This document shows positions 655 to 51,781 of a stretch of DNA of 64,000 bases, piece after piece; the stretch's first letter is position 1, and each line of letters starts with the position of its first letter. Source of the DNA: Candidatus Thorarchaeota archaeon (GTDB taxonomy: Archaea; Asgardarchaeota; Thorarchaeia; Thorarchaeales; Thorarchaeaceae); NCBI GenBank assembly GCA_048882485.1, contig JBHLRP010000001.1, positions 128,001-192,000 on the forward strand, in the 5' to 3' direction. The notes below the pieces were generated by a model that had not been told where the DNA came from, did not search any database, and saw only the letters and a list, made by a program, of their open reading frames with translations. The translations under genes and the position numbers were made by a program.

Positions 655-715
655 TCAGATGATTTGCCCCTAGAGATAAGCCCACCGATATGTGTGCACC
701 TTTTAACCGGGGATA

Positions 716-2398
716 TTGGAATTATTATTGAGGGTGATTATGGGAGTTTCTAGAGGTGAACTTGCTCTTTCAATCATGATGCGAGATTATGTGAGAGTTG
801 AAAGACTAGTTGACATGAAAACTCAGGAGATTGGCTGGACGAAGACAGCGAAACATCTTGCACGGCTCAGAAATTGTGAAACTGTTCCTGGAAATTCGCT
901 CTTTCCTATTCGAAAGGGAACATTTCGAGATTCCATGATTAGGGTGCTAGGATTAGAGTCCATTAGCGGAATAGACACCGACCTTCTTATTGGATTTCGT
1001 GAAATCAACGCCAGCAATCTAAATGAACTTCGCAGAGAGATTATGGAGCTATCGCTTGACATTCTTCGAAATCAGATCAGACAAAGAAACACGTTCTTTC
1101 TTGACACCGATGCAATGTCAACCTCGCCGTATGCAATCCTTGTCGCAGACCTACTTGAATCTAGATGTGCGGAGATTTCTGATCTTGCATCCAAGCCTAG
1201 TCTATGGGAAGTCTTCTCAACCTACTATGGATTTGTAGTCATCACCACTGGATCCGTAGAGAATGGCTTCGCTGGCGCGTCCAAGGAGGCAATAGAAGGT
1301 ATTGAGAACTTATCTCAGCAATTTGGTGACCAGGTCAAGATTCCAGCGAGACTAATTAAGCAATCCAAAGCCGCCTTCAGCAATTGCTCGCATTACACGA
1401 AGAAGTTGCTTTGGAGCCTTCTCCGGGTGGCCGCTTCTGGTTATGATAAGCGTTCAACCGCGGTTCGAGAGCTTGGAAATCTAGGGGACGAAAGGGCGCT
1501 TACTCTTTTGCACTCCAGATTGGAGTCAAATAGCGGATGGGTGATGCCTCCCCTCATTGAAGCAGTAGGGAAGATTGGTGACCCTAGCTCATTGGAGCTA
1601 TTGAGGAAGCTGCTTGATGGACGATACACAAAGAAGAACGCAATTCTTGCCTTGGGAGGAATCAGACATCCCTCAGTGCTGAGCCACATTAAGAGCGCCA
1701 TGGACTCCGAAAGACATCTGGAAACTCCGGGGATAATGGCTCTTGGTGAAAGCAGACATCCTGATGCAGTGCCAATTCTCCTCAAGATTCTCAGGACAAA
1801 GAGGGGGAGAAAGAGAGTTCATGCCATGTATTCTCTTCTAAATATTGGGAAGGAAGGAATTGAGGTCTTGAAAACAAACAGGAACTTCATCTCTGGGGCC
1901 ATTAGAAGCTCTGGCGTTCCGGGAAGAGCCATTGAGATTGCTCAAGCCCTGCCAAACTTCCAATGGGGAACTGCAGAGATTGAAGCGATTGCGAAGGTCA
2001 TTACTAAACGCACTCACATGAAAGGTCTCGCTGAAGTATTGCGAGAGCTACCGGAAGTCCTCAGCGATGTTCGAATAGTCGGTGCTATAATCCGAGTATA
2101 CAGAGATGCATATTCTCAAGAAACGACTCGAAGCAGTCAATCCTATTCCTATTACTCCTATAGGTCAAGAAGGAAATCAATGAGGGCTCTTAGAAAGGTG
2201 CGTGAATTGGAGCGAGCCCGAGTTATTGATGCAATAGCTCAATCAATTCTATTGGCAGAAGGCTCAATTCAATCAGCGAGGATGATCGCCAGCTGCGAAC
2301 ATCTTATGAAATACTCCACTCTGCGTGATGCAGTGATGCAAGTCCTCAACAAAGGAAAACCTTGTATTCTGACTGCATTTGAATCATGGTTTAGGTAA
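716..2398 (+). CDS. HEAT-repeat (PBS lyase-like) protein
   Basis: Repeats such as AVRELGNLGDERALTLL, AVGKIGDPSSLELL, ALGGIRHPSVLSHI and ALGESRHPDAVPILL. The start is uncertain; ATG 740 follows a GAGGGTGA SD. Confidence 0.75.
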   Translation: MELLLRVIMGVSRGELALSIMMRDYVRVERLVDMKTQEIGWTKTAKHLARLRNCETVPGNSLFPIRKGTFRDSMIRVLGLESISGIDTDLLIGFREINASNLNELRREIMELSLDILRNQIRQRNTFFLDTDAMSTSPYAILVADLLESRCAEISDLASKPSLWEVFSTYYGFVVITTGSVENGFAGASKEAIEGIENLSQQFGDQVKIPARLIKQSKAAFSNCSHYTKKLLWSLLRVAASGYDKRSTAVRELGNLGDERALTLLHSRLESNSGWVMPPLIEAVGKIGDPSSLELLRKLLDGRYTKKNAILALGGIRHPSVLSHIKSAMDSERHLETPGIMALGESRHPDAVPILLKILRTKRGRKRVHAMYSLLNIGKEGIEVLKTNRNFISGAIRSSGVPGRAIEIAQALPNFQWGTAEIEAIAKVITKRTHMKGLAEVLRELPEVLSDVRIVGAIIRVYRDAYSQETTRSSQSYSYYSYRSRRKSMRALRKVRELERARVIDAIAQSILLAEGSIQSARMIASCEHLMKYSTLRDAVMQVLNKGKPCILTAFESWFR

Positions 2399-13658: not shown

Positions 13659-14210
13659 TCATGCCTCCCTGGCTCGTGTCTTGACCAGCTGTCTGGATTC
13701 AGTTGCAGCATGCAGAAAGAGTTCAGCGACATTCAGCCCCGTTTTTGCGCTCGCCTCAAAATAAGTCAGGGTCAAGATATCTGCCATCCTTCGGCCCTCC
13801 TCGGCGGTGATTTTCTCTTGGTCTTCTAAATCAGCCTTATTGCCAACAAGGGATCCTCTTGGGAAGAGCTTCTCGGGTATGTTAACATTCTTTGTTAAAG
13901 ATCCATGCCATTCTGGAATGAGGTCAAACGTGGATCGGTCAGTCTTATCGAAGACAAGAATCATATGATGAGAACCAGCAAAGAAGCGACTTCTTAGACT
14001 GGTGAAAGTTGACTGTCCTCCAATGTCAACAACAGTAAGGACAACAGATCCATCCGGAAAGTCAAATGTAGCTGCCTTCATGTCCATTCCTACGGTGGCT
14101 GTGTACCCTTCGCTGAATTCCCCCGCTTGATAGCGCCTAATCAGTGAGCTTTTTCCCACGTTTGGTGGGCCAAGAACAATGGCCTTGTAAATTTCTGCCA
14201 GGTCGGACAA
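13659..14210 (-). CDS. Ras-superfamily small GTPase, Rab-like
   Basis: G1 GPPNVGKSS, G2 YTATVGMD, G3 DIGGQ, G4 GNKAD, G5 EASAKTG. No C-terminal Cys prenylation motif. Confidence 0.93.
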   Translation of the reverse strand: MSDLAEIYKAIVLGPPNVGKSSLIRRYQAGEFSEGYTATVGMDMKAATFDFPDGSVVLTVVDIGGQSTFTSLRSRFFAGSHHMILVFDKTDRSTFDLIPEWHGSLTKNVNIPEKLFPRGSLVGNKADLEDQEKITAEEGRRMADILTLTYFEASAKTGLNVAELFLHAATESRQLVKTRAREA

Positions 14211-44676: not shown

Positions 44677-47600
44677 GTGTATGTTGGTCGATTCGGAGGC
44701 GAAAGGGTGCCTCAATGCAGTAGAGTAGCTATTCCCGTAGTGGCATTTACGCTAGTCTGTATGCTATTCTTGAGTCCGCCCTGTCATTTGTCATTTTCAC
44801 GTGACAATTATGCATCGAATCTCAGTTCCAATTATGAACTGGAAAAAGCAAATCTTCCATCTGACATGGCTTTACAATCAGGAGTTCTAAATCCCGTTTC
44901 CATTCATCATACAGGAACCACTCATGGCTACACGCAGGCACAGTCGCTCAGAACAGATGTTGCTGCAAATCCTCAATCAGAAATCCTACTCCCTGCCGGA
45001 GCTCCCGAGAATTATTATTCAGCAGATTGCTATGACGGAGGTTTCTTTTTGGTTGGTTCAGGGGGATATGCAGATTTTGGCTCCACCGCTGGGACGCTAT
45101 CATGGTGGGGCAAATGGGACAGGGATGCTCCGCATGGGCGATTCTGGGGTCAAAACAACAACTTTGAAACACGCTGGTCTGGTGGAAGCCTAGTGCTTGA
45201 TTGGGGGAGTGATAATACATTCTTTGGTGTCAAATCAGACTGGCTGGAAAGTCACTGGTATTTCTTTGCAATAGTATGGGATGAATCGACAAATTTCATT
45301 GGATTCTACTGGGGTGACGAGTCAACAATTCCGCAGGAGGATGCATCGACCTATGCTTGGACGGGATCAGTGGCTGGTCTGCATACCCGAAACGCCATAA
45401 TGAACTCAGAGATGAAGACTGATAGTATAGATGGGCATATTGATGACTTCAGATATTTCACAACTGCTCGATCTATTGATGACATTAGAGGCGACTACAT
45501 ACAAAGGCTGTCGGGAGAAGAGCCCGGCCTTTCGAATTATTACACATTTGAGAATGACTTGTCTGACTCTGCAGGAACAATCGATCTAGACACCTCTGGC
45601 AGCTATTTGTTTAGCCATGACACCTTTTCTGTACCGGATGGATGGAGAGCTGAACAACTGTCGGTTAATGTATTGAATCTAAGAAGACTGTATGTTTTGA
45701 ATGGGAGCTTTGATTCTGGACTGCCTGGAGTGAATGAGGATTGGCCTTTGGGAACAGATGGAACATACTATGCAGCGGGATGGTTAGCTCGACGCGAGGC
45801 TGTTTCTTTTCCAGGAAGACAGCGGGCTACGTATGATGCTTCAGGGCACATAGCACTTGAAAACGAGGGCTACTATGTCACAGCTTCTACAGCCTACAGG
45901 CATTATGATGGAACCAGAATTTACTGGTATCAGAATGTGAACAATAGCATGCTGAATGAGCAATTTGAGTTCGAGTTCAATTATCTTTACCAGAGTGGTC
46001 CAATTGGAACTCATTTCGAAGGCATTTTTGAGCTTCGCTTTGAGATTAGGGATGGACCACTTGTTCTGTGGAATTGGTCACAAGATCTCGTAAACATATC
46101 CCAGAGGCAGACTTGGTATAGTACAGGGATGATTCCGGTGAACCTGACTGGTGCGCCGTCTTCGTTTGAAGCGCGCTTGGTCATGGAAGTCACAACTGCG
46201 GGTTCATATGTGGAGATTCCGGAAACTGACAGCGACTTGGATGGTGATTCCACAAATGGTATGTTCGTAACAGTGTTAGCTGATGATATCTCTTTTATTG
46301 GAGCGACTCGGCCTTCCTGCGAAAGTGTGGACTTGTCTGTAAGTACTCCTCAAACTGGAGGAGTGAGTATAACCGGAGCTTTGGGAACAGGCTCTGCATT
46401 GCTTAATTACCAGTCATGGAATGAATCTGCTATTCCTATTGCTTTCTCTTCCAATTCCTCTGTGTCTTTTGATATATCCGCCAAAGTCAGTAAAATGAAG
46501 AGATATCTGCTCTCATTTGCATCCCCTAGCTTAGGTTCTGAGGGTGTATCATACTCGGTTGAGCATGATGCAAGTCCTAATATCACCATGTTCACTTTTG
46601 TGGGATCATATCCTGAAGCTGAGGATCTTGGCCTTTTTGTCTATCATCCTGATTCATGGGAGAATATTACGATTACAGATCCATTTGGCGATGATGATTC
46701 TGATACATTAACTGTAGGGGCTGGATACTTCGAAGTGCCAGCAGGAGCTATTGATTCTGTTGGCTGGTGGAAAATACAGATGCAAGCGCCAAACTACGCG
46801 AAAGAGATCAGAACTCAGAAATTCAATTCTCTGGGATCTGGATGGGTGGATGAAACAGTCTTTCGAACTGGTGACAGAATCCGATGCCAGGTAGTAATTG
46901 GCACGGTTTCAGATTATCCTCCTTCTGTCATGAATCTTCAATCTGAGATATTACTTCCATCCAACGAGTTTTGGGCAAGCGCATTCATGAATAATGCAAC
47001 TGGATACATCCTTACTAGCGAAAGCTTCACGTTCGGTTCATATAACGCCTCAATCGGCGAATGGATGGCAACTGCCTTCTGGGAGAATGGTAGTGCAATT
47101 GCATTTGGGCACGTTCATTTCGAGGTCTATCATGGATTGACCATGTTTGCTCATACTCCAAATATTGAACGCAATCTAGGTGAGAGCTTTACTGCTGCAG
47201 TTTACATTCATGACCAGCAGACAGGAGAGCCGATATTGAATGGAGACTCTGTAGTTGTTGGCAATTGGTCTACAGGTCCAGCATTCTTTAGTCCCAACCT
47301 TGCAAAAGGATGGTGGGAGGCGGATTTCAACACTTCAGAAATTGGAGTCGGACTTTGGGTTATAGCAATTAATGCGACAATTCCCTACTATGAGGCCGTA
47401 AACTGCACAATCGATATTCAAGTCATGACGCTGACTGTCATGACGACTCTTGGTACCTACTACGCTGAGATAAGTCCAGGCAGCACATATGAGGCCAAAT
47501 TTAGATACATGTTTCTCGATGGCACAGGAATTGAGAATGCAGATGTGTTTGTTGCTACCTGGAGTGGACCAGCATCAGGAATAGAATACAATGATACAGT

Positions 47601-49437
47601 TGAGATGCCAGGCGAACCCGGCAATTACACGATTACATTCACTGGAAACCTCGGTGGAACATATTTCATAACTGTAACTGGACTAAAAGAAGACCATGCA
47701 ACGGCAGCCACATCATTCTATATAATTGTCGGAGCTATATCCACTAATCTTGATGTTTCAGGTGACGAACTGCCTAGTGATCTGTACTATAACCAGACCT
47801 ACACTTGCACGCTCTTCTATTCAGACCTGGAGTCAACAGGAATTGATGGCGCCTCTGTGAATATCACATTCAATCCAGTTGCTACGATAGAATGGGTAGA
47901 CATCGGTGGTGGCTATTACCAATTCTCAATCAGAGTGCCATCACTCGGCTCCTTTGCAATCTATGCGAGATTCCAGCAATTTGGCTACGCTTTTACCGAC
48001 ACGTCATTCATCTTTAATGTCATCGAAGTCCCAACCTCCATCTCGAGTTACGGGCTTGTACCATCCTACTATGATACTAGAACCTATCAATTTGCCCTAC
48101 ATTATAATTCAACTCTAGAGAGCGGGGTTTTGGGTGCTACACTCACACCATCTGTTTCAATTCGTCCTTTCTACAGGTTTACAAGAGCTGGCAATGGCTG
48201 GTACAATTTCACTTTGACTCCCTCATATGGCAATTATACTGCGACCTTCTGGCTAACAAAGCCTGGTTACCAAGAGCAGGAATTTAGCTTCGACTTATCA
48301 ACTGTCAAAATTCCAATTATGCTCTCTTCTCTTTACCCAATAGAATCAACTTACTCCAGAAAAGCCGGTTCAGACCTTACGATTAGGATTGCGCCAATTG
48401 CAGCTGACACAGGTGAAGCCCTCATAGGTGCAACGGTGAGCTATGTAATCGAGAATGTAGATGTAGGTAGGCCTGAGCCGAATCCTTCAGGCTCATTTGT
48501 GGAAGCATTCGGTGTTTACACTGCAAACATTACAATGCCCTTTCCAGGATTGTATGTGCTTCGCATTACGATTCTCAAGGACAGTTACGAAACTGTTCAA
48601 AATGAAATCGTACTTAGCTCTTATGCGAATCCTGAAACAGTCCTGGTTCAAAACCTTCAAGCTGGTTTGCTAGGCGCACTGGCACTGCTTTGTGTGATTT
48701 CTGTGACGATGCTGAGTCGGAGATACTTTCATGCAATAACCACTCAGAAGAATCTGGAGCTCCTAGCATTCAAAGGACGGCTTGAGGATGCTCGCAACTT
48801 GATAGGGCTTCTAATAATCCATCGAAAGGTGGGCTTACCCGTCTATTCTCGGATATTCAAGGGTGCCTTTGAGGAATCAATGCTCAGTTCATTTATAGCC
48901 GCGATTTCGCAATTCAGAGCCGAGTTCTCTTGGGATGAACCAATCTGGACTGCTATACCCATCACGGAAGTCATCACTGCCGTTCAGACTGAGGTGCTAA
49001 TTTGTGCCATCATAACACTTGAGGGGTCCTCGGTGAAACAGAAAGAGCAATTGGAGGCGTTTGGGCGCGAGGTAGGAGGTTTCTATGATCACGAGGACGA
49101 CACTTTGAGGGCGATGTTCCATACCCCGGAGCTTTCTGAATCCTTTGCTAGGATATTTGACCCCATCTTCGAGGGCTACTTCGATGGAGTTCTCATGCTT
49201 CGCTATGTAGGGGTGAAGAAGAATCTTCCCGGTCATCTAAAGCCAGTATCAGAAGCGATGGCCTCCCTAAGCATTGATTATGGAGTGACACCTGAAGCAA
49301 TAATCAAAGCTCTAGTTATGCTGGGGTATGGTGAACATGAAGCCCATAGTCTGACACTAGAAGCAATTGATCGTGGTTACTTGATTGCAGGCGAAAGGAA
49401 GCTGCCTCCGCCAGCTCTCGGTGAACTCCTTGAATGA
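44677..49437 (+). CDS. Large single-pass surface protein: LamG-like domain, Ig-like repeats, TM, cytoplasmic longin-like domain
   Basis: Signal-like N-terminus; LamG motifs WYFFAIVWD and GHIDDFRYF; GxGxY Ig-type repeats; TM at about 48661-48714; LIGLLIIHRKVGLPVYS...MLSSFIAAISQF longin-like signature. Confidence 0.75.
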   Translation: MYVGRFGGERVPQCSRVAIPVVAFTLVCMLFLSPPCHLSFSRDNYASNLSSNYELEKANLPSDMALQSGVLNPVSIHHTGTTHGYTQAQSLRTDVAANPQSEILLPAGAPENYYSADCYDGGFFLVGSGGYADFGSTAGTLSWWGKWDRDAPHGRFWGQNNNFETRWSGGSLVLDWGSDNTFFGVKSDWLESHWYFFAIVWDESTNFIGFYWGDESTIPQEDASTYAWTGSVAGLHTRNAIMNSEMKTDSIDGHIDDFRYFTTARSIDDIRGDYIQRLSGEEPGLSNYYTFENDLSDSAGTIDLDTSGSYLFSHDTFSVPDGWRAEQLSVNVLNLRRLYVLNGSFDSGLPGVNEDWPLGTDGTYYAAGWLARREAVSFPGRQRATYDASGHIALENEGYYVTASTAYRHYDGTRIYWYQNVNNSMLNEQFEFEFNYLYQSGPIGTHFEGIFELRFEIRDGPLVLWNWSQDLVNISQRQTWYSTGMIPVNLTGAPSSFEARLVMEVTTAGSYVEIPETDSDLDGDSTNGMFVTVLADDISFIGATRPSCESVDLSVSTPQTGGVSITGALGTGSALLNYQSWNESAIPIAFSSNSSVSFDISAKVSKMKRYLLSFASPSLGSEGVSYSVEHDASPNITMFTFVGSYPEAEDLGLFVYHPDSWENITITDPFGDDDSDTLTVGAGYFEVPAGAIDSVGWWKIQMQAPNYAKEIRTQKFNSLGSGWVDETVFRTGDRIRCQVVIGTVSDYPPSVMNLQSEILLPSNEFWASAFMNNATGYILTSESFTFGSYNASIGEWMATAFWENGSAIAFGHVHFEVYHGLTMFAHTPNIERNLGESFTAAVYIHDQQTGEPILNGDSVVVGNWSTGPAFFSPNLAKGWWEADFNTSEIGVGLWVIAINATIPYYEAVNCTIDIQVMTLTVMTTLGTYYAEISPGSTYEAKFRYMFLDGTGIENADVFVATWSGPASGIEYNDTVEMPGEPGNYTITFTGNLGGTYFITVTGLKEDHATAATSFYIIVGAISTNLDVSGDELPSDLYYNQTYTCTLFYSDLESTGIDGASVNITFNPVATIEWVDIGGGYYQFSIRVPSLGSFAIYARFQQFGYAFTDTSFIFNVIEVPTSISSYGLVPSYYDTRTYQFALHYNSTLESGVLGATLTPSVSIRPFYRFTRAGNGWYNFTLTPSYGNYTATFWLTKPGYQEQEFSFDLSTVKIPIMLSSLYPIESTYSRKAGSDLTIRIAPIAADTGEALIGATVSYVIENVDVGRPEPNPSGSFVEAFGVYTANITMPFPGLYVLRITILKDSYETVQNEIVLSSYANPETVLVQNLQAGLLGALALLCVISVTMLSRRYFHAITTQKNLELLAFKGRLEDARNLIGLLIIHRKVGLPVYSRIFKGAFEESMLSSFIAAISQFRAEFSWDEPIWTAIPITEVITAVQTEVLICAIITLEGSSVKQKEQLEAFGREVGGFYDHEDDTLRAMFHTPELSESFARIFDPIFEGYFDGVLMLRYVGVKKNLPGHLKPVSEAMASLSIDYGVTPEAIIKALVMLGYGEHEAHSLTLEAIDRGYLIAGERKLPPPALGELLE

Positions 49438-49655: not shown

Positions 49656-50789
49656 ATGAGTGAGTTCATAATTCGTTATTTCAGTCCGCACGGACGCCAG
49701 GAGGAAAGGAAATTCAGGAGTGATGCTTCACGAATAGAGCTTTCAATGAGGGCCGCAAGTGAAATCGACCTCACCCCTTTGCAGGATTGTGACCAGCTAG
49801 AAAGATTGGACCTATCTCACAATTTCCTTGAGGCAATAGATTTGGCTCCCTTGATGGACAAGAAATCTCTTCAAGTTCTTCGTCTGCAGGACAATAGACT
49901 CTCAGCGTTGGATCTTTGGCCCCTGCACTCTTGTCCGAATCTTACTGAGATTGAACTTACTGAGAATAGGCTAAGAACCCTAGACGTAACTCCTGTGTTC
50001 ACATGCAGACTTCTGCGCGCAGATTCCAGTGTGGTGTTGACCGCAGACAGCATTCTAAAGCATATACTCACACCGGAGATGATCATGGCGCAGTTTCACT
50101 CGGTCCGCACAGATAGGACAGCTTGGACTGCTGCACCCGTAGTCATTTGGAATGATTATGACAAGTTAGTGAAAACCATAGGTTGGCCTCTAGTATTTCA
50201 ACGCATGAAATCAGTCCTATCAAAGATATCAGAGGTTAATTGGTTTGACGCACAGAAGGGTCTACTAGAATCCCTTGGCATGCCAGAACTCTCAGGCTTG
50301 GATGTGAACCCTATGAAGATTCTTGTTGATGTGTCTGAGGAAGAAGATTATGAGTCTTCGAAAGAACGCATCTATGACCGAGTGGTTGAACTTCTAGCTG
50401 ATCAAATAGAAAGAGGCGGCCCTACTCTATTCCTTAATGTACTGAGGATGAAGGACACTCGAGCATCACGCTTAATCCCTTCCATTGCAAAACAGAGAGT
50501 GGCCGAACTTGAGGAGTTGGAAGTGCAGACACTTCGCGGTATTGCTTTCCTTCATTCAATCTGGATGACATCCTATGGATTTGATGTTCTCAGTGCCCTT
50601 GATTGCGGTCTGACTGCAAACTCAGTTGATATGAACCAAATCAAGATGGCTTTCGCCGAAGCTGGCTTTGAGCTAAACATCAGGCGAGTGAATTCGATTG
50701 CTCATAGAAATTGGGGTGATACGTCTCGCAGCTTTAGGCGATTTATTTTCAGATTGGCACGTTCTCATACTGGAAGAAAGGGGATGTAA
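49656..50789 (+). CDS. Leucine-rich repeat protein (cytoplasmic)
   Basis: LERLDLSHNFLEAIDL, LQVLRLQDNRLSALDL and LTEIELTENRLRTLDV match LxxLxLxxNxL. Confidence 0.85.
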   Translation: MSEFIIRYFSPHGRQEERKFRSDASRIELSMRAASEIDLTPLQDCDQLERLDLSHNFLEAIDLAPLMDKKSLQVLRLQDNRLSALDLWPLHSCPNLTEIELTENRLRTLDVTPVFTCRLLRADSSVVLTADSILKHILTPEMIMAQFHSVRTDRTAWTAAPVVIWNDYDKLVKTIGWPLVFQRMKSVLSKISEVNWFDAQKGLLESLGMPELSGLDVNPMKILVDVSEEEDYESSKERIYDRVVELLADQIERGGPTLFLNVLRMKDTRASRLIPSIAKQRVAELEELEVQTLRGIAFLHSIWMTSYGFDVLSALDCGLTANSVDMNQIKMAFAEAGFELNIRRVNSIAHRNWGDTSRSFRRFIFRLARSHTGRKGM

Positions 50790-51190: not shown

Positions 51191-51781
51191 ATGGCAAGAA
51201 GAGAAACCTTCAAGGATCCACTTGTTAGGGTACGAATCTCTCGAGTCAGATTCCCCAAGATGTGTCCTGTCTGTGGCTCTGAAACGAATGGAGTCACCAA
51301 AGTAGTCACCACTCATAATAACACAAAGTTCCTTTCTCGTGGTGCAATGGCTCACTATGATCGAAAACTAGTTGGGACTCCTGTTCCTGATATCAAGACC
51401 TTTCATGTATACGTTTGTGAGGACCACGATCTTGAGGATGGGGGCATCATGAGGCTGAGAGCAGCTTCCACTTTCTATGCAGCATTAGCTGTCTGCATGC
51501 TCGTCTTTGCAGTAATGTTGATAGGAAATGATCTTAGCCATGGTCGACCACTCACTGTTTGGACGGCTCTCTTCTTCACATTTGTAGGAGCTACAATGAC
51601 ACTGGTATTTGTGGCATTTCGGCCATACGGAATAGAAACCGCCTTCAAGATTGTCGGATTTGATTATGACTTGCGACATGTGTGGCTTCAGCTGGAGAAT
51701 CCCACATATCGAAATGCTATGCTTCAAGAGAATGCTATGGATTCCGAGCTCGCTTCTTGGATTGTTCGCGGCGGAACTTAG
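51191..51781 (+). CDS. Two-TM membrane protein with a putative zinc site (CxxC...CxxH)
   Basis: FPKMCPVCG and YVCEDH motifs followed by two TM helices. Confidence 0.7.
   Translation: MARRETFKDPLVRVRISRVRFPKMCPVCGSETNGVTKVVTTHNNTKFLSRGAMAHYDRKLVGTPVPDIKTFHVYVCEDHDLEDGGIMRLRAASTFYAALAVCMLVFAVMLIGNDLSHGRPLTVWTALFFTFVGATMTLVFVAFRPYGIETAFKIVGFDYDLRHVWLQLENPTYRNAMLQENAMDSELASWIVRGGT

Follow-up and report, generated by a model that had tools for sequence, protein, structure and literature searches.

What does a giant archaeal surface protein do with a folded domain on the cytoplasmic side of the membrane? The question is raised by a gene at positions 44677-49437 (plus strand) of a 64,000-nucleotide stretch of Candidatus Thorarchaeota DNA (contig JBHLRP010000001.1 of assembly GCA_048882485.1, positions 128,001 to 192,000), hereafter called the window. 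Asgard archaea possess many eukaryote-like small GTPases and longin/roadblock proteins, and the wiring between them is almost wholly obscure because their genes rarely lie in operons. An original prediction, made from the window itself, had described the gene product as a receptor-like protein in which a LamG/Ig ectodomain is joined through one transmembrane (TM) helix to a longin-like and winged-helix-like cytoplasmic tail, and had proposed that this tail passes surface contact directly to Ras-superfamily GTPases. In the analysis reported here the layout, the cytoplasmic placement of the tail and its longin fold held up, the winged helix survived in a weaker form, and the coupling to GTPases found no support.

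The open reading frame (ORF) is uninterrupted over 1586 codons and begins with a GTG. A hydropathy scan of the protein detected three stretches. The first, at aa ~17-35 (44725-44781; Kyte-Doolittle peak 2.17), would act as a signal peptide or N-terminal anchor. The second and strong one, at aa 1327-1347 (48655-48717), is followed by two arginines and corresponds to the single TM helix. The third, at aa 1427-1450, is milder and coincides with buried strands of the tail domain in the structure model described below. All 25 N-x-S/T sequons of the protein are located between the two hydrophobic anchors, against 12.3 +/- 3.1 in shuffled sequences of the same composition, and none occurs in the last 240 residues. 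The region that carries them (aa ~40-1325, 44794-48651) is acidic and rich in Ser, Thr and Asn. With an N-terminal signal, one TM helix, a positive-inside RR pair and sequons in the outer part only, sequence heuristics define a type I single-pass surface protein, about 1290 residues of which lie outside the cell and about 240 within it, and none of these heuristics places the tail outside. The outer part is probably N-glycosylated.

The ectodomain was identified less directly. Pfam called a single domain in the protein, a YtkA-like Ig repeat (PF13115, aa 947-1000, 47515-47676, E 3.5e-5) that scores just below its cut-off (24.8 against 25.9 bits) and is one of several Ig-like repeats. Laminin_G_3 (PF13385) was not called by Pfam in the protein itself. 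It was found in orthologues P0013, P0017, P0025 and P0031 at the position equivalent to aa ~115-275 (45019-45501), with 28.2, 33.0 and 34.8 bits in three of them and 27.0 in the other, for a gathering threshold of 27.6. The label "LamG plus Ig-like" is therefore fair, with a LamG (concanavalin-like) part that comes from the orthologues. The ectodomains of more distant relatives contain Big_1, Filamin, Invasin_D3 and MG4 repeats.

The tail was modelled with AlphaFold2 from an alignment of 50 sequences (mean predicted local distance difference test score, pLDDT, 83.8; predicted template modelling score 0.76). The model begins with a 29-residue juxtamembrane helix (aa ~1346-1374, 48712-48798; model residues 2-30, pLDDT 88-93) that continues from the membrane into the first strand of the next domain and contains the conserved residues R4, R5, L18, R24, D27 and N30 (tail alignment numbering). 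Beyond the helix, conserved residues of the tail include G42, S47, F69, R70, T103, G123, D159 and Y166. Two strands, a helix, three strands and two long helices follow (model residues 31-157, aa 1375-1501), and then a small unit. The elements are E31-38, E44-49, H56-73, E82-84, E89-93, E97-103, H109-126 and H140-157, with a short extra helix at 130-135. This is the beta1-beta2-alpha1-beta3-beta4-beta5-alpha2-alpha3 order of longin domains, and its first strand is the LIGLLIIH motif (aa 1375-1382), which, like the ORF, lies where the original prediction had put it. On this model, the tail of the protein is a longin domain, which we delimit at aa 1375-1503 (48799-49185).

Structure comparisons agree on this assignment. 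A search of 48,161 solved chains (VIA-wide), independent of Foldseek, returned longins in nearly all of its top rows, with synbindin at Z 10.5 and sedlin, AP-3 sigma and SRX at Z 10.3 each. These were followed by VAMP7, Sec22, Fuzzy, HPS, Mon1/Ccz1, FLCN and NPRL-type chains, each aligned over model residues ~30-160. The best Foldseek rows were zeta/delta-COP, AP sigma, Fuzzy and Mon1, at a modest best E-value of 5.6e-4. When the Foldseek candidates were re-scored, 107 chains reached Z >= 8 and all 50 listed rows were longins. The best solved match is the N-terminal domain of Sec22b (Z 11.2, rmsd 3.1 A, 120 of 127 residues), and TRAPP Bet5/Trs23, sedlin, AP sigma, SRX and Fuzzy all score at Z about 10. 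GATOR1/SEA chains, at Z 8.3, match the tail longin no better than other longins do. Sequence searches were far less informative. Pfam and NCBIfam gave nothing meaningful for the tail, no Pfam longin match was found at E <= 1, no NPR2/NPR3 match was found in Pfam, and a profile search of Protein Data Bank sequences returned chance-level rows only, at E > 0.5. Fuz_longin_1 is the Pfam family that recurs most among the 50 tails, yet its matches are weak (4/50, best E 0.035).

The longin domain is followed by a small acidic unit of strand, three helices and strand (aa 1510-1572, 49204-49392), the predicted winged-helix end, which reached a pLDDT of 87 when modelled separately. Most of its structural neighbours are winged helices, among them those of KAT6A and SAMD1, the C-termini of MCM and RPA32, MecI, linker histones and the ORC winged helix, with low scores (Z 4.2-5.2 over 57-62 residues). 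Foldseek found nothing for this domain at E <= 1e-3 (best E 0.25), and reached a GATOR1 chain at E 1.6 only. The resemblance to a winged helix is weak; on the model, "winged-helix-like" is a fair description of the domain and no more. Across the family its core is acidic to neutral (median isoelectric point 5.8, median net charge -2) and the helix at the recognition position has an acidic consensus in the tail alignment, which favours a role in binding protein over binding DNA. The protein ends in a disordered segment (49393-49434, pLDDT under 50). The alignment consensus of this segment contains an L-P-x-P motif that is kept within the orthogroup and not in distant paralogues, and may be a short linear binding motif.

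The same two-domain cassette exists without a membrane anchor. The tail profile matches three soluble proteins in the window's genome. One of them (C6:99998-101269, minus strand, also recovered as L075:601-1872, minus strand) belongs to an unannotated Thorarchaeota family of about 410-430 aa, and the alignment of this family, A5, matches the tail profile by hhalign with 94.7% probability (E 6e-8, 181 columns) and colinearly over both tail domains. A second (C41:22731-23648, minus strand, or L076:922-1839, minus strand) is a protein of ~300 aa composed of a Fuz/Mon1-type longin, a TrmB-type winged helix-turn-helix and a second helix-turn-helix (alignment A3, HTH_47). In Pfam it gave sub-threshold matches to Longin, Fuz_longin_1 and Intu_longin_1 and a TrmB match above its cut-off (PF01978, 26.4 against 25.6 bits). 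The family is conserved in Thorarchaeota, with PF19036, PF01978 and PF16221 in its precomputed annotation, and its longin part is linked to the tail more weakly than A5 (hhalign 64%, E 6e-5). Three unannotated Asgard clusters of the ESM Atlas match the whole cassette in structure (TM-score 0.72-0.73). The tail is therefore a membrane-tethered copy of a longin plus small-domain cassette that also occurs in soluble form. The A5 and A3 proteins are found in the same genomes as the tail, to which profile-profile comparison relates them, and differ from the surface protein by having no signal peptide, TM helix or ectodomain and by carrying C-terminal extensions of their own. In the C6 protein, the N-terminal 245 aa are homologous to the whole cassette and the C-terminal ~170 aa lie outside it. 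The C41 family could be a longin-sensor transcription regulator.

A word-indexed search with the tail retrieved 77 full-length proteins, all annotated as hypothetical and with 33-91% identity in the tail; their named sources are Thorarchaeota, Sifarchaeia or generic Promethearchaeota metagenome-assembled genomes (MAGs). An exhaustive profile search of 1.84 billion representatives returned 258 clusters, 111 of them below 1e-30; numbers of this size put the family well beyond chance. In its members the cassette always forms the C-terminus, after the TM helix, on varied ectodomains, in proteins of about 1000 to 2350 aa; the weaker profile matches still have Ig-like repeats upstream of the module. 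Collections with one genome per species contained 64 loci, practically all labelled Thorarchaeota. In the Asgard-wide survey of the architecture for which the original prediction had called, 251 genomes of the phylum were covered: 48 of the 59 sampled genomes of the window's family gave strong matches (1-6 each), and five other families gave weak ones (about 1e-11) to the juxtamembrane helix and the first half of the domain. Three of four fetched weak-match loci carry a giant ORF whose product has a hydrophobic segment at the N-terminus and a TM helix near the C-terminus, together with a basic juxtamembrane stretch and a longin-like motif that leads into a helical end. The C-terminal sequence pattern recurs in the fourth, where the hydropathy scan picked out no segment. 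In its strongly conserved form the cassette is therefore a Thorarchaeota feature, and the general layout, in diverged versions, reaches further into Asgard archaea.

The genome of the window has two full copies, the 44677-49437 gene and a 1930-codon ORF on contig C12, and the tree of tails contains several paralogue clades as well as some tandem pairs. Nearly all orthologues show stronger conservation in the tail than in the ectodomain. For instance, the tail is 76% identical against 52% for the ectodomain in one case; in another, where the ectodomain is 400 aa shorter, the values are 62% for the tail and 46% for the best-aligned stretch of the ectodomain. P0059 compared with P0001 is discordant, with an ectodomain that is 67% identical and a tail that is 54% identical, the reverse of all other orthologues. 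This may be due to recombination between ectodomain and tail. The tail of P0063 diverges from that of P0001 to a similar extent. Module-bearing giant genes also occur two or three head to tail, at L050:1915-10738, L066:4032-11728 and G087:C4:63534-73814 (three in one contig). The tails of such arrays belong to different clades, as would fit heteromeric pairing of longin tails.

What might such a tail do? According to PMC10933270 (citing Levine 2013), longin and roadblock domains serve as dimeric docking platforms, in most cases for small GTPases but not in all. The predicted tail fold resembles the compact longins of eukaryotes (the N-termini of Sec22b, VAMP7 and Ykt6, TRAPP Bet5, Trs23, sedlin and synbindin, AP sigma and mu-N, zeta/delta-COP, SRX of SR-alpha, and the first longin of Fuzzy, Mon1 and HPS1) with Z 9-11.2 over 112-130 residues and an rmsd of about 3 A. 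Like them it would work in the cytoplasm beside a membrane, and the weak Fuz_longin_1 hints in the tails point the same way. The difference lies in the attachment: the longin of the 44677-49437 protein comes after a TM helix and an extracellular domain of ~1300 aa, whereas longin SNAREs are tail-anchored without an ectodomain and the other compact longins are soluble subunits. As a working analogy, Ragulator, whose lipid-anchored LAMTOR roadblock dimers hold Rag GTPases, and the SRX-SR-beta pair also keep a longin/roadblock-fold module at a membrane. In these, however, the anchor is the lipidated LAMTOR1 or a TM helix on the GTPase, there is no extracellular domain, and GTPase binding is demonstrated, while for the tail it is a proposal.

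Longin domains in Asgard archaea are already well known. The main texts of PMC10933270 and of Liu et al. (bioRxiv 10.1101/2020.10.19.343400) describe proteins of the same superfamily with lineage-specific domain shuffling; a Loki Roadblock-Longin (PDB 8yqg) matches the tail at Z 8.9-9.3. Liu et al. recognise 130 roadblock/longin asCOGs and find that most Thor MAGs have a longin joined to a small C-terminal domain ("NPRL2-like"), and the main text of PMC10933270 gives longin homologues for Loki and Odin and not for Thor. The proteins described in these texts are soluble or are GTPase or two-component fusions, in contrast to a giant ectodomain-TM-longin protein. That layout was not found in the literature searched, consisting of main texts without the supplementary asCOG tables, where it may have been catalogued earlier, and is apparently undescribed.

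We favour, with moderate confidence, a membrane-anchored longin docking platform under a variable surface ectodomain. The ectodomain, with its LamG-like head and Ig-like repeats, varies among paralogues and would be adhesin- or receptor-like, and the tail is a fixed cassette of juxtamembrane helix, longin-fold domain and small acidic winged-helix-like domain. This cassette could dock a cytoplasmic partner, either to hold it where the surface protein sits or to inform it when the ectodomain clusters or binds a ligand. Candidate partners are another longin/roadblock-type protein, such as the soluble paralogues, a small GTPase, and the leucine-rich repeat (LRR) protein encoded downstream. We infer the docking itself, the identity of the partner and the direction of signalling, and both outside-in and inside-out are compatible with the arrangement.

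Several points weigh against a docking platform. The longin fold is that of a predicted structure and not of a solved one, and none of the 50 tails reached the curated cut-off of the Pfam longin models (PF13774 Longin, PF19036 Fuz_longin_1, PF19031 Intu_longin_1), which is why we file the tail under the longin fold and not as a member of any Pfam longin family. The partners named above are candidates only. Genes of small GTPases are not enriched near the module. A hidden Markov model built from the Ras-like protein of the window and its genome, which finds 32 GTPase ORFs in the 3.96-Mb genome, detected three in the 539 kb of flanks of 66 non-redundant module loci, where 4.35 were expected (Poisson P(>=3) = 0.81). 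Adjacency to the LRR gene may be ordinary synteny, because the block around it is conserved in the orthogroup too, with its metabolic genes, the upstream PALP enzyme and the genes downstream. Finally, the ectodomain could be purely structural, as in a cell-envelope or S-layer-like protein, with a tail that serves assembly and not signalling.

The original prediction went further than a docking platform and proposed a receptor that works outside-in, with a longin tail acting as a guanine nucleotide exchange factor (GEF) or GTPase-activating protein (GAP) platform, or as a direct binder, for a Ras-superfamily GTPase that surface contact would switch. We consider this unlikely. It draws on the longin fold of the tail and on its structural matches, which include GTPase-binding longins of eukaryotes (TRAPP, Mon1-Ccz1, Fuzzy-Inturned, FLCN, NPRL2/3, SRX), as well as on the roughly 32 small-GTPase ORFs available in the genome. 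The best matches, however, also include longins with GTPase-independent roles, the SNAREs Sec22b, VAMP7 and Ykt6; adaptor sigma and mu subunits likewise have such roles. Known longin GEFs and GAPs are heterodimers with further subunits, none of which was identified for the tail. The gene context does not help this proposal. The Ras-family gene of the window is real (13659-14210, minus strand) but lies 30 kb from 44677-49437, and no link between the two was found. A GTPase gene does lie within 2.5 kb of two distant paralogues, directly upstream and divergent at L006 and downstream at L005, but neither adjacency is kept within its clade, and three genes around 66 loci is below expectation. This absence of linkage is weak evidence, and in cultured Asgard MK-D1, according to the main text of PMC10933270, GTPase genes are generally outside operons with roadblock/longin genes. 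A more specific version, in which the tail forms a pair with a soluble longin paralogue and acts directly on a Rab-, Rag- or Arf-like GTPase, recruiting or switching it, when the ectodomain is engaged, seems to us quite improbable. If a receptor-GTPase pathway of this kind did exist, it would be a prokaryotic outside-in route and a possible forerunner of the Ragulator, signal recognition particle receptor and TRAPP platforms.

Alternatively, the tail might carry no signal and be a sorting, positioning or quality-control handle that places, clusters or turns over a structural surface protein, for example on protrusions. Partners of a cytoskeletal, ESCRT or adaptor-like kind, the LRR protein for instance, would mediate this. 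We give this inside-out reading a small chance of being correct. The same tail is found on many different ectodomains, as expected for a common handling tag, and the longins of adaptor sigma/mu subunits and SNAREs are sorting modules. The tandem arrays of module-bearing giants (L050, L066, G087) are consistent with such a role, and so is the acidic winged-helix-like domain, which recalls the protein-binding winged helices of RPA32 and MCM C-termini. With those, and with the KAT6A and SAMD1 winged helices, it shares on the model a three-helix core and a small sheet (Z 4.8-5.2, 57-62 residues); it differs in having a beta-alpha3-beta order instead of the canonical alpha-beta-alpha-alpha-beta-beta and an acidic surface, and common arrangements of small domains reach scores of this size as well. 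The handle would need a partner, for which the LRR protein is a candidate only. Its gene (49656-50789, plus strand) encodes a cytoplasmic protein of 377 aa with Pfam LRR_4/LRR_8 repeats and an unnamed C-terminal domain. It lies directly downstream of the giant gene and on the same strand in every locus of the window's orthogroup (30 loci, median open-frame gap 66 bp; 219 bp in the window), but within the generally conserved synteny noted above. No similarity to the tail was detected (hhalign 0.3%), no Pfam match was found in the C-terminal ~200 aa, and the ESM Atlas gave no usable neighbour (TM-score <= 0.42). The repeats are closest in sequence to those of a Chlorobium Roco protein (5il7/6hlu, E 4e-21), a similarity of repeat type only. 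Even if the tail were only a sorting or anchoring handle, it would still be a rare conserved folded cytoplasmic domain on archaeal surface giants.

A membrane-tethered transcription regulator of the ToxR/CadC type, or one released by proteolysis, in which the C-terminal domain binds DNA, would be in line with the bona fide TrmB-type winged helix-turn-helix of the soluble C41 relative (PF01978, 26.4 bits) and with the DNA-binding winged helices (KAT6A, SAMD1, MecI, linker histones) among the small-domain matches. We give it very low odds because the winged-helix-like domain is acidic, in its core as in its recognition-position helix; moreover, its fold matches are weak (Z <= 5.2, and nothing from Foldseek at E <= 1e-3), and no Pfam helix-turn-helix model matched the tail of the 44677-49437 protein or the 50 family tails. 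Equally low odds go to a reading of the domain as roadblock/LC7 (MglB-like), or of its longin identity as a modelling artefact. Roadblocks and longins have a core in common, the first strand comes after a long helix as it does in roadblocks, and MglB, LAMTOR and Asgard roadblocks are among the matches (Z 7-8.3, within Z 6.8-8.3 for roadblock chains), but the roadblock alignments stop at about model residue 130 after about 100 residues, whereas those of longins extend to ~160, including H140-157, over 116-130 residues and at higher Z, and sequence links to Fuz_longin_1-bearing proteins were obtained independently.

The family matters in several respects. It fixes a longin module at the inner face of the cell membrane, beneath a large surface protein, and offers a concrete case for asking whether longin platforms were already at work on membranes when the endomembranes of eukaryotes had yet to arise. 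The combination of longin and winged-helix-like domain would be a reusable cassette of Thorarchaeota, with soluble and tethered forms. The tail itself, soluble, ~240 aa long and confidently modelled, is a defined bait for a partner search.

Other observations concern the neighbourhood and the relatives of the gene. The unnamed domain of the LRR protein (about aa 170-350) occurs in roughly eight proteins of the genome, fused to LRR or HEAT repeats, and belongs to no Pfam family; in the window it is also carried by a 563-aa ORF at 707-2395 (plus strand). A HEAT version (L041:6126-7739, minus strand) convergently adjoins a different clade of longin-tail paralogues (L041/L042), which is no more than suggestive. 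Around other paralogue clades the conserved neighbours, the housekeeping genes folE2, PTPS, DNA ligase and MetRS as well as PAS kinases, represent uninformative synteny. After the LRR gene, the window contains an ORF at 51191-51781 (plus strand) whose 196-aa product has hydrophobic segments and a zinc-ribbon motif of the CPxC type; it is conserved at 20 orthologous loci and belongs to no Pfam family.

In the closed Thorarchaeota chromosome CP070658.1 (L018, G242:C1:623257-623901), the open frame with the orthologous tail has only 267 codons and no LRR gene follows it; this orthologue may be truncated or frameshifted. Locus L042 (CAYOSZ010000075.1) was binned in an "Ignavibacteria" MAG, and its tail is identical to that of the Thorarchaeota-type contig L041 from the same study, so that the label is probably a binning error. 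A further match to the tail profile was found at aa 776-885 of P0218, a soluble metagenomic protein of 1021 aa. Upstream of the match, P0218 contains an FG-GAP/BBS7-BBS2-ITFG2-like beta-propeller, a DDRGK domain and a PCI domain, an unusual eukaryote-like combination.

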